A stretch of 64,000 nt of DNA from a virus (taxonomy: Duplodnaviria > Caudoviricetes). This document shows, piece by piece, positions 55,833-60,092 of the stretch. The notes beneath the pieces are model-generated. The model was not told where the DNA came from, made no database searches, and saw only the letters and a list, made by a program, of their open reading frames with translations. The position numbers and the translations under genes are program-made. The DNA lies in IMG/VR virus record IMGVR_UViG_3300021426_000005. One strand, written 5' to 3'. Within the stretch, counting starts at the first letter, position 1; the number at the start of each line of letters is the position of its first letter.

Positions 55833-56213
55833 TTATAACGAGAGATCAAAGCGATACTGCGGATCTGCCGTAACCATTTCTTGATAAAATCTATTGAAAA
55901 TTTGCAATATCTGCGCATCGTTTAGACCGGTACACACTGTATCAAAACCATTCCTGGTGATGCTGAACGGACATGACTTACATTCATGATGATCACAAAA
56001 AGCTCGATAGCAATGGTCACTAAGCCAGTATATGAAATCCGTACTTACAGTATTTTCATCATCGACCGAAGAAAACAGCTTCGACCCACACTGATGACAA
56101 AAATTCATTCCATACTGCAAGCTATCGCCATTTTGATAAAATGGTACATCTAGTGTAACCCCACACTTTGGACATTTTACTTTAGCAGTGCCTATTCCTA
56201 CCATCAATCTCAC
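55833..56213 (-). CDS. zinc-ribbon protein
   Basis: CPKCG..FCHQCG..C..CPF. Confidence 0.7.
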   Translation of the reverse strand: MRLMVGIGTAKVKCPKCGVTLDVPFYQNGDSLQYGMNFCHQCGSKLFSSVDDENTVSTDFIYWLSDHCYRAFCDHHECKSCPFSITRNGFDTVCTGLNDAQILQIFNRFYQEMVTADPQYRFDLSL

Positions 56214-56215
56214 CC

Positions 56216-56314
56216 CTATTCATCTAAATGGTCATTCTTAGTCGAAACCAAAGCAAGTATTGCAATACCGAAAACGGTACCGCCTACAAATGAAGCAAAA
56301 CAAGCTAGGATCAT
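56216..56314 (-). CDS. 32-aa single-TM peptide (DUF3789-like)
   Basis: Hand-translated MILACFASFVGGTVFGIAILALVSTKNDHLDE; RBS GGGTGG. Confidence 0.6.
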   Translation of the reverse strand: MILACFASFVGGTVFGIAILALVSTKNDHLDE

Positions 56315-56315
56315 A

Positions 56316-56435
56316 TTAAACACCACCCTTTGAATTCCTTAATATAATGGCTGTAAGCCGGTTATAGTGTTCTTCCTTGATTTGACCTGTTGTCAGTAAA
56401 TACTTAGCCCAGGCTTCAAAAATTTGCTGTTTCAC
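56316..56435 (-). CDS. 39-aa SHOCT-like peptide, candidate recombination directionality factor
   Basis: Hand-translated MKQQIFEAWAKYLLTTGQIKEEHYNRLTAIILRNSKGGV; LxxxGxIxxExY pattern; RBS GGGAGTG; divergent from integrase. Confidence 0.55.
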   Translation of the reverse strand: MKQQIFEAWAKYLLTTGQIKEEHYNRLTAIILRNSKGGV

Positions 56436-56486
56436 AAAATCACTCCCTATGAAAGTCTTGACTAGGATAGCCTATTCTATACTATC

Positions 56487-56539
56487 TATAACGATTTGTG
56501 ATTTTCCCTATTGACAAACTAATCACGGTATTGTATAAT
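56487..56539. promoter_or_regulatory. back-to-back promoters: class I (minus, 56487-56496) and consensus sigmaA (plus, 56511-56539)
   Basis: AATCGTTATA and TTGACA-17-TATAAT, both exact. Confidence 0.85.
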
Positions 56540-56559
56540 TGATATAGGGTGGTGATAAA

Positions 56560-58311
56560 ATGGATATTTATAATATCGCTAATGAACTGAAACTTTCTCA
56601 TAAGACCATTCATGATATTCCGCTTAGAGTAACATTCTATGCTAGGGTTTCTACTACAAGAGAAGAACAAGAAGGCTCTATAGAGCATCAGATCAGCTTC
56701 TTTACTGAAATGATCCAGAATAATCATAATTGGACGTTTATTCCGGGTTATGTGGATAGGATCAGAGGGGAATCCGCATCTAACCGTGAAAACTTCATGC
56801 GTATGATTGAAGATGGGAAGAATGATAAATTCGATTTAATCCTGACGAAAGAGGTTTCCAGATTTGCAAGAAACACAATTGACAGCTTAACTTATACTAG
56901 AGAGCTATTACGCTGCGGTGTAGGTGTATTCTTCCAGAATGACGGAATTTGCACCATTGATACTGATAGTGAACTGAGACTAACTATCATGTCAAGTATA
57001 GCAGCTGATGAAGTCAGAAAGCTCTCAGAGCGTGTACATTGGGGACAGAAACGTTCAATTGAGAACGGTAGGGTCATGGGTAACAACCGTATGTATGGCT
57101 ATCACAAGTCCGACTGCAAATTAGTCATAGATGAAGCTGAAGCTGAAATGGTCAGACTGATATACCAACTATATGCTACCGGAGATTATAGCACCCGGAA
57201 AATAGAAAAAATCCTCTACGAAAGAGGATTTAGAAGCCGGAGCGGTACTAAAATTTTTCATGGGGTAATATCTGGAATAATTCAGAATCCTAAATACAAA
57301 GGATATTACTGTGGAAATAAGGTCCGAATAGTAGACTACAGAACAAAACAGCAGAAGTTTCTTCCGGAAGAGGACTGGATCATATACAAAGACGAAACCG
57401 GTGAAGTTGTTCCAGCTATAGTTTCAGAAGAACTCTGGGATAAGGCGAATGCAGTCTTCCAGGAAAGAAGTCAGGCTATTAAGGTAAGAGGGAGATCTTT
57501 CAAAGATAAAAGTCCATTGACCGGAAAGATCTGGTGCGGAGCTGACGGAAGTGCCTATTGGAGAACGAGCTATTCCAACAGCATCAAGATGGGAAGCCCA
57601 ATTTACCAATGGGTATGTAGTTCAAAGAAAAAGGACGGTGCAGCTTCTTGTAAATCATTTGCTTTAATGGAATGGGAAGTATACTACATCTTATCAAATA
57701 CATTCAAATCACTAGTAGATGATATAGATACTTATGTATCAGAATTTCTTGAACTCCTAAAAGCTACAGATCCTACCAAAGATGTACAGAAAGATATACT
57801 AGCACTAACAGCAAAAATTGATCAATGTAAAACAAAGAAAGATAAACTATTAGAAATATATATGGACGATGCTATATCTAAAGCTGAGTTCAAAGCTAAA
57901 AATGATGATTTCAATAGAAAGATTGAAGAATATGAAGGCGAAATCAATGACCTCAAGGAATTGAAATCCGACACAGCTATGACAAGCCGTAAGCTCCATG
58001 AGATTGAAAAGTCTATCAAGGGCATATATCAATCAGATGATGAAGTAATTCCGAAAGCTCAGTTGGACGACCTGATAAAGACTGTACTGGATAAAATAGA
58101 AGTTTATCCTGATACTGAGGATTCAATGATTCTTAAAATCTTCCTAAAAACTGGGTCAGAAACATCAGTAACTCATTCAAAAGACTTGCGTTGTTCTGGA
58201 CACATCAAACATATGATTAAGCCACAACAACAATACATATTCAAAAGAAATTCTATAAAAAGACAGCATCATGAATTCCAAATCAGATATGATGCTGAAA
58301 TATACATATAA
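56560..58311 (+). CDS. large serine recombinase (integrase)
   Basis: YARVST catalytic Ser, SRFARN, recombinase domain (NPKYKG), Zn-ribbon-like region and coiled coil. Confidence 0.95.
   Translation: MDIYNIANELKLSHKTIHDIPLRVTFYARVSTTREEQEGSIEHQISFFTEMIQNNHNWTFIPGYVDRIRGESASNRENFMRMIEDGKNDKFDLILTKEVSRFARNTIDSLTYTRELLRCGVGVFFQNDGICTIDTDSELRLTIMSSIAADEVRKLSERVHWGQKRSIENGRVMGNNRMYGYHKSDCKLVIDEAEAEMVRLIYQLYATGDYSTRKIEKILYERGFRSRSGTKIFHGVISGIIQNPKYKGYYCGNKVRIVDYRTKQQKFLPEEDWIIYKDETGEVVPAIVSEELWDKANAVFQERSQAIKVRGRSFKDKSPLTGKIWCGADGSAYWRTSYSNSIKMGSPIYQWVCSSKKKDGAASCKSFALMEWEVYYILSNTFKSLVDDIDTYVSEFLELLKATDPTKDVQKDILALTAKIDQCKTKKDKLLEIYMDDAISKAEFKAKNDDFNRKIEEYEGEINDLKELKSDTAMTSRKLHEIEKSIKGIYQSDDEVIPKAQLDDLIKTVLDKIEVYPDTEDSMILKIFLKTGSETSVTHSKDLRCSGHIKHMIKPQQQYIFKRNSIKRQHHEFQIRYDAEIYI
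58190..58231. repeat. imperfect inverted repeat, candidate attP inside integrase ORF
   Basis: GTTGTTCTGG-acac-ATCA-aaCAta-TGAT-taag-CCACAACAAC, symmetric about CA at 58210-58211. Confidence 0.55.
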
Positions 58312-58314
58312 AAT

Positions 58315-58342
58315 AAGGCTGGGATCAGTAAGTCCCAGCCTT
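58315..58342. terminator. bidirectional terminator
   Basis: AAGGCTGGGA/TCCCAGCCTT between convergent genes. Confidence 0.8.
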
Positions 58343-58346
58343 TAGT

Positions 58347-60092
58347 TTATTCGATTGGATCAAGAGCATCAGCAATTCCACTCATGATATAAGCTACACA
58401 TGGTACCGCTACCGAATTTCCTAATGCTTTATATCTTGAAGCATCGGATTCAGGATAGGTCCAATTGTCAGGAAAACCCTGGAGCCTTTCGCATTCCACA
58501 GGCGTCAACCTCCGGACAATCGAATTTGATTTATATACTATCTTGGGGTCTTTATAATCCCTTGCAAGTAAGGTAGGTACAACTTCTTCATCACAACCCA
58601 TGAAATGCCCTGTAGTTGCGCAGAGTGCCGGCTGCTCCATTACCAACGGAACATTACCTCCACCAGTACCCATTCTCGCAGATAACGTCTGACATATTCC
58701 GTCATCGGAAATCTTTACCCTACTGTCTGCTGGATGATTTTCAATTAATACACCCATTCTCTGATTAGCCACTAAAGTAGGTGATAATTCTTCATTGTAT
58801 GGTAAACATGGCACTCCTGGACCGGCTTGATAAGCAAAAGCTGCTGAGGATTTTTCAGTTTGATCTTTTACGGAATAAGCAACCGCAGGTCTATCTATAG
58901 TAGTCAATGTATAAGATACATCTTCTTTCCAACCTTTACCATTGCAACTAGCGGTATCAGCTCTGTCAACGCAATTTCCTTGTATACAGTACACCGGTTC
59001 CTGAACTACCACATTTCCGCCTTGATTGCAAGTAGGATCTGTTCCTGTGGTATCAAGGGTCTTAGCTACATCTGCTTTGTAGAAGCCACTATTAGGATTA
59101 CCGGACTTCATAGAGTTCGATCCCATAGAACATATACCATAGACTTCCGATGCTTCTGATTGACTATCTACCAGCACAGACATCTGATTATCGCCCATCT
59201 GTGCTCTTAATGTACCGGAAAGCTCAGGCCATAGCCTTGAACCCTTTAGTCTTGAGGAAGCTCCTGGTTCAAATCCGTAGGTTGTTGTTTCTGCGACATC
59301 AGATGTGCTTGCCTTTCCAATGCTACTTTCAGCCTTTCCGGAAGCTCTTTTCCACGGGATTTCGCCCTGCGGAGTATGCCTTCGCAGGCTTTCTGGCTTA
59401 AATAATACCTCTCTTGCACGTTGTCCTCCAAGATCTGTGACAAGGAAGATTCTACGTCTGCGCTGGGGGACTCCCCAATATTCAGCATCGAGAGTCCTCC
59501 AAGCAAGGGATCCGGACTTTCCCAACAACTCCCCCGCTTTTGTCCACTGCTTAGGTCTAAACGTAGGAAGTTCTTCTCCAAATAGTCCAGCGAATTCTCG
59601 CAGGACGCAGTAGAAGTCGTCTCCATTGTTTGAGCTAAGACTCCCGAATACATTTTCCCAGATAATAAATTTCGGATACTCGCCATTAGTTGCTTCCCTC
59701 ATTTCTTTAATAATTCTGATCTGTTCTACAAATAGACCGCTTCGTGTTAGTTCCAATTCTGCTCCACACTCAGGGCAGGTAAAAACGTCAGAATTTGCAA
59801 GAATTGAAAATCCGCAGTCTTGGCAAATTCGTGAAATTCCGGCCTGCTTTCCGGCGATAGACAATGACTGACAGGGCGACCCTCCAGAAATTATATCAAC
59901 CGGATCAATTTTACCACCATCGATCTTCGTAATATCCCCAATATGCTTCATATTCGGGAAATGCCGTTTTGTGATGCGTATCGGAGCTTCTTCAATCTCA
60001 GAAGCCCATACTGGTTCAATACCGTACATCTGAGCTGCAAGTTCAAATCCACCGATACCAGAAAACAAACTTCCTAATGTCAGCTTAGGCAT
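58347..60092 (-). CDS. dcm: C5-cytosine DNA methyltransferase with long variable region
   Basis: FSGIGG, GSPCQ, WENV, QRRRR, RRLTPVECERLQGFP, LGNSV. Confidence 0.95.
   Translation of the reverse strand: MPKLTLGSLFSGIGGFELAAQMYGIEPVWASEIEEAPIRITKRHFPNMKHIGDITKIDGGKIDPVDIISGGSPCQSLSIAGKQAGISRICQDCGFSILANSDVFTCPECGAELELTRSGLFVEQIRIIKEMREATNGEYPKFIIWENVFGSLSSNNGDDFYCVLREFAGLFGEELPTFRPKQWTKAGELLGKSGSLAWRTLDAEYWGVPQRRRRIFLVTDLGGQRAREVLFKPESLRRHTPQGEIPWKRASGKAESSIGKASTSDVAETTTYGFEPGASSRLKGSRLWPELSGTLRAQMGDNQMSVLVDSQSEASEVYGICSMGSNSMKSGNPNSGFYKADVAKTLDTTGTDPTCNQGGNVVVQEPVYCIQGNCVDRADTASCNGKGWKEDVSYTLTTIDRPAVAYSVKDQTEKSSAAFAYQAGPGVPCLPYNEELSPTLVANQRMGVLIENHPADSRVKISDDGICQTLSARMGTGGGNVPLVMEQPALCATTGHFMGCDEEVVPTLLARDYKDPKIVYKSNSIVRRLTPVECERLQGFPDNWTYPESDASRYKALGNSVAVPCVAYIMSGIADALDPIE
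59246..59686 (-). CDS. alternative-frame ORF nested in dcm (M.EcoHK31I beta-like)
   Basis: Ends SLSQILE..YYLSQKACEGILRRAKSRGKELP..ALE, a motif I recognise from nested-frame products of phage C5-MTases. Confidence 0.55.
   Translation of the reverse strand: MASIRNLLSGKMYSGVLAQTMETTSTASCENSLDYLEKNFLRLDLSSGQKRGSCWESPDPLLGGLSMLNIGESPSADVESSLSQILEDNVQERYYLSQKACEGILRRAKSRGKELPERLKVALERQAHLMSQKQQPTDLNQELPQD

Follow-up and report, generated by a model that had tools for sequence, protein, structure and literature searches.

An attP site within the gene of a large serine integrase

The 64,000-nucleotide stretch of DNA considered here (IMG/VR virus record IMGVR_UViG_3300021426_000005, Caudoviricetes; hereafter the window) carries on its plus strand an open reading frame (ORF) for a large serine integrase of 583 amino acids (aa), P0001, in the form that belongs to the free phage. 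An earlier note made from the sequence alone had placed an attP-like site inside this ORF and had proposed that integration exchanges the integrase's C-terminus, possibly with that of a gene for a spore protein of the small, acid-soluble type (SASP). The comparison of free and integrated copies makes it highly probable that P0001, with attP in its own ORF, recombines at a central CA with an attB of about 50 bp in the single SASP gene of the host, which generates two in-frame chimeric genes, and that the exchanged tail is probably a part of the integrase for the free state. The features on which this reading is built are the following.

56560..58311, plus strand: large serine integrase gene in its free-phage form, 583 aa, P0001 (Pfam domains, AlphaFold2 helices 409-489, phage flanks)
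58186..58235, no strand: attP, about 50 bp with approximate limits, covering codons ~543-559 and holding a 42-bp dyad (dyad and junction contigs)
58210..58211, no strand: crossover dinucleotide CA, bases 1-2 of codon H551 (sole sequence common to attP, attB, attL and attR)
58210..58311, plus strand: exchangeable 3' part of the integrase gene, codons 551-583 and the stop codon, which becomes the 3' end of a chimeric SASP gene (P0196)

Three Pfam domains follow one another in P0001, i.e., PF00239 Resolvase (2e-24), PF07508 Recombinase (3e-17) and PF13408 Zn_ribbon_recom (1e-7), and the protein is therefore a large serine recombinase. Its nucleophilic serine S31, together with the surrounding motif R29-V30-S31-T32, is invariant across 123 homologues, and the AlphaFold2 (AF2) model shows in the zinc-ribbon domain a coiled-coil of two long helices (residues 409-435 and 441-489) with a predicted local distance difference test score (pLDDT) of 84-90. 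The domain order, the coiled-coil and the short att sites, imperfect dyads of about 40-50 bp with little in common but a non-palindromic 2-bp centre, are all those of large serine integrases. Enzymes of this class catalyze attP x attB recombination without host factors and depend on a recombination directionality factor (RDF) for excision.

The exact P0001 sequence is present on metagenome contigs of 147-152 kb with phage genes on both sides of the integrase gene, its neighbours there including Thy1, YopX, DUF3310, several DNA methyltransferases, an AcrVA2-like gene and a zeta-like kinase, and phage genes also flank three other free-form integrase homologues on both sides. Since phage DNA lies on both flanks of the integrase gene, the window represents a large, unintegrated phage genome, and it is part of a temperate Ruminococcus phage of about 150 kb. 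The opposite view, in which the window would be a prophage whose long integrase tail derives from the host, was rejected because both flanks consist of phage DNA and are separated from each other in lysogens. In the GenBank phage collection, megablast of window positions 56000-59000 gave no match, and tblastn returned only relatives of 44% identity or less.

The proposed site is a 42-bp dyad at 58190-58231, which was confirmed on the sequence as the earlier note had described it. Its outer arms (58190-58199 and 58222-58231) are complementary at 9 of 10 positions, the inner arms ATCA (58204-58207) and TGAT (58214-58217) lie in the same register as the outer ones, and the centre is CA (58210-58211). 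The dyad codes for R-C-S-G-H-I-K-H-M-I-K-P-Q-Q, including the SGHIKHMI peptide pointed out in the note, and 33 codons run from H551 (58210-58212) to the stop. Complementary bases occupy 14 of the 20 non-central pairs, and a symmetry score as high as this is reached by 9 of the 63,959 42-mers of the window (1.4e-4). The dyad is thus rare but not unique in 64 kb, which makes it weak evidence alone, and the proof comes from the comparative junctions presented below. In diverged free-form homologues a dyad is kept around the equivalent codon (13-18 of 24 pairs); the symmetry of attB amounts to 7 of 24 pairs. The peptide motifs R-C/R-S-G and P-Q/E-Q-Q beside the crossover correspond to the symmetric arms T-T-G-T-T and A-A-C-A-A, and these residues are therefore probably conserved as DNA. 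The motifs R-C/R-S-G-x-I and P-Q/E-Q-Q would thus largely be translations of attP half-sites.

Integration junctions and the empty host site

Contigs with junctions were located by protein look-ups and then compared base by base, and a profile of the integrase tails and of the chimeras found in two Ruminococcus genomes (G001 and G002, described below) was used to retrieve chimeric small proteins. One of these, P0196 (88 aa), consists of the N-terminal 55 aa of a SASP followed by a 33-residue tail that is 100% identical to that of the window. At the nucleotide level, the attL contigs L037 and L039 join the 5' part of the SASP gene to the 33-codon tail of the window. On the left side of the P0196 contigs lie host thiamine biosynthesis (thi) genes and a SpaA-type surface protein gene, and on their right side the post-integrase genes of the window in window order, i.e., C5 methyltransferase, a 125-aa gene, zeta-like kinase, AcrVA2-like gene, Zn-ribbon gene, two N6/N4 methyltransferases and a Nlig-Ia-like gene.

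The reciprocal junction occurs in the attR contigs L042 and L044, in which integrase codons 1-550 run into the final 10 codons of the SASP gene and host genes come next. The corresponding proteins, P0242 and P0244, are 560-aa integrases that belong to the 90% cluster of P0001 and end, after K550, in Q-K-M-I-S-A-Y-K-Q-Q. P0244 is encoded on a 132-kb contig with the left-hand genes of the window upstream and host genes for DegV, a SpoU-methylase, RuvX and dihydroorotate dehydrogenase (DHODH) downstream, and one of the attL contigs comes from the same sample (SRR33675039) as this attR contig.

In BLAST comparisons with the window, the attR contig is 87-96% identical and its match stops exactly at 58211, and the match of the attL contigs begins exactly at 58210. 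Base-level alignment of the four sites gives the following picture.

attP: ..ATCAAA-CA-TATGAT..
attR: ..ATCAAA-CA-GAAGAT..
attL: ..ATGGTC-CA-TATGAT..
attB: ..ATGGTC-CA-GAAGAT..

The CA at 58210-58211 is the sole sequence that the four sites have in common and is therefore the crossover. To recover the attB of this set, the expected end of an intact SASP was written as a degenerate pattern, which found one genome contig: L047, from the Ruminococcus flavefaciens metagenome-assembled genome (MAG) RUG10602, carries an intact 65-aa SASP gene adjoining DegV whose DNA is the deduced attB, and the host CA opens a Gln codon (CAG). The SASP and integrase ORFs are co-oriented and in the same phase, so that integration yields two in-frame chimeras: the 583-aa integrase becomes a protein of 560 aa (550 own and 10 SASP residues) and the 65-aa SASP becomes an 88-aa chimera (55 own and 33 integrase residues). 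The integrase encoded by the free phage therefore differs from that of the prophage.

These junctions bear out what the earlier note had put forward, namely that the dyad is attP with its central CA as crossover, that integration replaces the last 33 residues of the integrase, and that attB may be found in a gene for an alpha/beta-type SASP, with a Gln codon as the source of the matching CA; the site is at the motif G-G-x-M-V-(K/Q)-K-M-I. Of the two outcomes that the note named as fatal to its proposal, prophage junctions at another place and collinearity of integrated copies past the site, neither was seen: the junction contigs break at 58210/58211, and integrated copies of this phage lineage, about 95% identical to the window in nucleotides, lose their homology to it there. 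That the dyad is a chance palindrome in an ordinary integrase gene, with the true attP elsewhere, is practically excluded, since, although nine 42-mers of the window equal its symmetry score, the homology of attL and attR breaks exactly at its central CA and an empty attB was recovered. Nothing was found against the assignment of attP, attB or crossover.

In the mechanism that these sequences show, the integrase joins attP (58186-58235) to attB at the conserved SASP motif G-G-x-M-V-Q-K-M-I, with strand exchange at CA 58210-58211, which in the host belongs to the Gln codon. The attL product encodes SASP residues 1-55 followed by the last 33 of the integrase, and the attR product integrase residues 1-550 followed by the last 10 of the SASP. 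The 33-aa tail is most likely an integrase part that serves the free phage, for integration, and is missing from the lysogen, in which, if the prophages are inducible, the 560-aa form together with a directionality factor would have to perform excision. The plentiful complete free-form genomes are compatible with prophage excision but no proof of it.

For an uncultured gut or rumen phage of about 150 kb, the junctions thus provide a base-exact set of attP, attB, attL and attR and a host, a Ruminococcus flavefaciens-like bacterium. Compact integrase and attP modules with a known attB might be made into tools for gut Clostridia that are genetically intractable.

A family of integrases that divides at the crossover

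A protein search of 5.8 billion sequences returned more than 8000 strong homologues of P0001, and the classes of tails were scored on the best 120. These are 57-92% identical to P0001, and several are annotated at their source as Ruminococcus, Huintestinicola or Oscillospiraceae, most being unnamed. The best 120 are collinear with P0001 until the motif R-R/C-S-G-x-I-x and then diverge into classes. The long tail of the free form, P-Q/E-Q-Q-aromatic-x-F-x-R-N-S-I-R onward and 33 residues past the breakpoint, is found in 22 of them, whereas 95 have a short SASP-type tail of 10-17 residues (K-K-M-I-E/D-x-Y-E/K onward), which corresponds to the integrated form, and three have other short ends. The C-terminal breakpoint followed by SASP-like tails, which the earlier note had suggested looking for among homologues, is thus the prevailing condition in this set, and the ORFs of all 95 short-tailed integrases are intact and of full length. 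Host-derived C-termini are borne by at least 95 of the best 120 homologues, several of which go by the name 'recombinase family protein'.

Odd ends at the breakpoint were seen in the integrase homologues P0033, P0034, P0070 and P0082, three of which (556 aa) stop 3-4 residues past the crossover and one of which has an unrelated 20-aa tail, and the chimeric SASP P0221 has Tyr at the crossover codon. These five proteins may reflect secondary sites, decayed SASP genes or mutations after integration.

Host SASP genes and integrated relatives

After G-G-Q-M-V, the intact alpha/beta-type SASP genes of 30 genomes of the bacterial family have ends identical to the short integrase tails. These genes match positions 1-58/59 of the PF00269 model at about 1e-30, including the C-terminal G-G-x-M-V-K-K-M-I block. 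A SASP gene is present in 45 of the 61 family genomes sampled, nearly always as a single copy; cultured Ruminococcus species are classed as non-sporulating.

In two genomes, R. albus G001 and R. flavefaciens G002, a short-tailed integrase lies at the boundary between an element and host DNA. The sole SASP-family match of each genome is a protein with the N-terminal part of a SASP and a long integrase-type tail, encoded on the contig and strand of the integrase at a distance of 24 kb and 59 kb, respectively, and the junctions share only C-A-A at the base level. The R. albus element (L003) is a 24-kb non-phage island with Fic/RhuM and R2K genes, and that of R. flavefaciens (L004), of 59 kb and also non-phage, has genes for a DUF87 ATPase, a NikA-like protein, a reverse transcriptase and an amidoligase/GATase. 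The integrase-attP module has moved among element types. Phages and non-phage islands thus make up a large family of serine-integrase elements that targets the single, highly conserved SASP gene of Oscillospiraceae.

At least 120 chimeric small SASP proteins were retrieved (78-139 aa, most of 82-89 aa), and these SASP-matching proteins, several of them named SASP at their source, are attL chimeras. The chimera P0196 matches positions 4-57/59 of the PF00269 model and keeps an M-I motif past the crossover, which suggests that a chimeric SASP may stay functional. A phage-borne SASP gene that would compensate for the altered host gene, of which sspC of SPbeta is an example, was not found within the 64-kb window.

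In the Ruminococcus MAG GCA_018052525.1 (JAGPNI010000002.1, 26.6-57.0 kb), attL (L037 10001-10267) and attR (L042 10001-11683) lie only about 30 kb apart, and the interior shares with the window only the right-end genes and scattered pieces. This occupant could be a degraded prophage, a smaller element with the same module or an assembly collapse.

The central dinucleotide and the host codon

The centre of attP is CA in the clade of the window (window, L048 and L049) and AA in L050, where its position comes from an alignment instead of junctions. In G001 and G002 (L003/L005 and L004/L006) the shared core is CAA, which is read as AA by homology with the window and is also compatible with CA. 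On the host side, the centre of attB is CA within the Gln codon of L047, versus AA within a Lys codon (AAG/AAA) in all 30 other SASP genes examined (L007-L036). In these few cases, the central dinucleotide looks as if it co-varies between phage clades and host SASP alleles. A single host codon change from Lys to Gln may then decide which phage clade can integrate, which also suggests how phages follow such a change.

Comparison with known integration systems

In model spore-formers ssp is a forespore gene, and excision in the mother cell would therefore not serve it. The known targets of intervening elements (sigK, spsM, spoVFB, gerE and yabG) are mother-cell genes that are rebuilt by mother-cell excision (PMC5595907, PMC10747680), and these papers do not list the gene that the window phage targets, in contrast to the targets of the SPbeta, skin, gin and yin elements. 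What it shares with the sporulation gene-intervening elements (skin, SPbeta, vfbin, gin and yin) is the presence of a serine-recombinase element in the coding sequence of a sporulation gene, in this case one for a PF00269 protein. Like SPbeta (spsM; integrase SprA, RDF SprB) and skin (sigK of Bacillus subtilis and Clostridioides difficile), the system combines a large serine integrase, a large element and a target in sporulation-gene coding sequence, and like SPbeta the window phage is large and has YopX, Thy1 and many methyltransferases. Unlike in SPbeta, in which attP is located between sprA and sprB (PMC8270828), attP of the window phage lies inside the integrase ORF. A further difference from the SPbeta/skin class is that the target is altered at its extreme 3' end only, where the last 10 codons are displaced.

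The integrase of the Myxococcus phage Mx8 is a tyrosine recombinase that targets tRNA-Asp loci. In this phage attP is within intP, and upon integration the integrase gene becomes a recombinant one whose 3' end is new and whose product is still active and has changed specificity (PMC6070905). The window phage resembles Mx8 in having attP within the integrase coding sequence and a new integrase C-terminus in the prophage, and is unlike it in its enzyme, a serine integrase whose crossover spans 2 bp, and in a reciprocal exchange that joins the integrase gene in frame to a host gene for a protein. The SSV-type 'suicidal' tyrosine integrases of archaea also have their recombination site within the integrase ORF (PMC7253208). 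Their gene is split into two inactive parts, whereas the window integrase, from another recombinase superfamily, swaps only its last 33 codons and its ORF stays complete. An attP within the integrase gene is thus already known for tyrosine recombinases (Mx8, SSV); in the present system the site likewise lies within coding sequence, at codon 551 of 583, and the enzyme is a serine, not a tyrosine, recombinase.

Listeria phage A118 has a serine integrase and an attB in comK, with attP and attB poorly related outside the core and little symmetry in attB (PMC3556126). The window integrase is similar in targeting host coding sequence with att sites that are little alike past the core and a weakly symmetric attB, and different in its target gene and in the position of attP in the integrase gene, which is absent from the description of A118 in that paper. 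Searches of full-text literature, with a term search of Durrant et al. 2022 among them, found neither a SASP gene described as attB nor a serine integrase whose ORF holds attP, an absence that is no proof.

The role of the exchanged tail

The residues Q558, R563, H571 and Y577 of the tail are at least 90% conserved in 25 free-form integrases, and a like pattern is seen in at least 120 SASP chimeras. This conservation extends 81 bp from the crossover, which is beyond the reach of any att site and therefore indicates a constraint at the protein level. Between the window and L048 (92% aa identity), codons 1-550 have a dN/dS of ~0.06 and codons 559-583 one of ~0.1, the value for the tail coming from five substitutions only. 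For window 58210-58308 versus L048 7651-7749, dS is about 0.2-0.3 in the tail versus about 0.7 in the rest of the gene, with very small counts. The low dS of the tail hints at an additional constraint at the DNA level or at a recent exchange of the attP-tail segment.

AF2 was run on the whole protein with 123 sequences and on the C-terminal 90 aa with 23 free-form sequences. The crossover peptide (543-556) appears as a low-confidence linker between a C-terminal domain of one helix plus three strands and a weakly predicted beta-hairpin, and the flexibility of this linker may explain why the protein tolerates an embedded DNA site.

Several points weigh against the proposal that the tail serves the integrase in the free state. 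The fold and contacts of the tail are predicted at a pLDDT of 43-67 only, no Pfam family was found for the C-terminal domain or the tail of the integrase at E values up to 10, and the dN/dS of the tail depends on the five substitutions mentioned above. What selection on the tail maintains could be the chimeric SASP and not the integrase. Among the look-ups made, no sample contained both the free and the integrated form. In addition, the element in GCA_018052525.1 spans only about 30 kb, and not every occupant of the site is therefore a full phage.

Among the alternative explanations of the swap, a realistic one, though short of an even chance, is that it has no regulatory meaning: the flexible linker would tolerate attP, which keeps integrase and attP inseparable, the tail would be dispensable or stabilizing, and both forms would behave alike. 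The predicted disorder of the crossover region and the many integrated copies that persist with a short tail are in line with this explanation, as is the fact that serine integrases of other families, judged by the lengths of the A118 and Bxb1 enzymes, end soon after the zinc-ribbon and coiled-coil region. A dispensable tail should however decay, yet its length of 33 codons and the four distal residues are kept across homologues of 57-98% identity and in about 120 hybrids.

A tentative alternative, on the doubtful side, is that the swap acts as a state switch in which the 33-aa tail favours attP x attB recombination and the SASP-tailed form favours or permits RDF-dependent excision, or is less active and thereby stabilizes lysogeny. 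It would account for the conservation of the tail up to 81 bp past the crossover and for the intact ORFs of all 95 integrated-form integrases. By analogy, an extreme C-terminal element and F532 of SprA from SPbeta have an influence on directionality according to Abe et al. 2021 (cited in PMC11722253 and PMC8270828), and the new 3' end of the Mx8 integrase alters its specificity (PMC6070905). Against the switch stands the low pLDDT of the tail structure.

A more elaborate form, which we regard as unlikely, would make the in-frame tail exchange a physical memory of the integration state, in which the beta-hairpin tail licenses integration and the 10 SASP residues set up RDF-dependent excision or stable lysogeny, coupled to the matched CA/AA centres and the Gln/Lys alleles of the host. 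If true, this would be a covalent directionality device of a kind not described for serine integrases. The family offers in any case a natural experiment on what the extreme C-terminus contributes to directionality in serine integrases, a question that mutagenesis and cryo-EM now address in the SPbeta and phiC31 integrases.

Integrating islands restore the tRNA genes that they split, and in a comparable manner the tail might be selected mainly for the chimeric SASP, as a replacement C-terminus that keeps the only alpha/beta SASP of the host functional or harmless in lysogen spores. The retention of SASP model positions 4-57/59 and of the M-I motif in the hybrid, the single SASP gene of most family genomes, the hybrid being the only one in G001 and G002, and the lack of a phage-borne SASP gene within the window all speak for such selection. 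The tail, 33 aa long and beta-rich, is however unlike the 10-aa SASP end whose place it takes, while restoration by mimicry would predict a SASP-like end, and we consider this explanation unlikely.

Flanking features

Two further elements border the integrase gene.

56511..56539, plus strand: putative promoter for the integrase gene, of sigma-70 type (TTGACA, 17-nt spacer, TATAAT; 12/12 consensus match)
58315..58342, no strand: bidirectional intrinsic-terminator-like hairpin after the integrase stop, common to the convergent C5-methyltransferase gene

The hairpin is also present in the attL contigs, and in the lysogen it lies 3' of the chimeric SASP ORF. The adjoining C5 DNA methyltransferase of the window (58347-60092, minus strand) has 581 aa and is intein-free; in close relatives this protein has 807-1132 aa, with Hint, LAGLIDADG or HNH-type intein insertions (L037 10865-14263, L039 3498-5921, L048 8864-12211). 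On the other side of the integrase gene, a small ORF at 56316-56560 is divergent from it and is a putative candidate for the directionality factor, and L001, L044 and L048 each have a 32-aa ORF called at the corresponding position.

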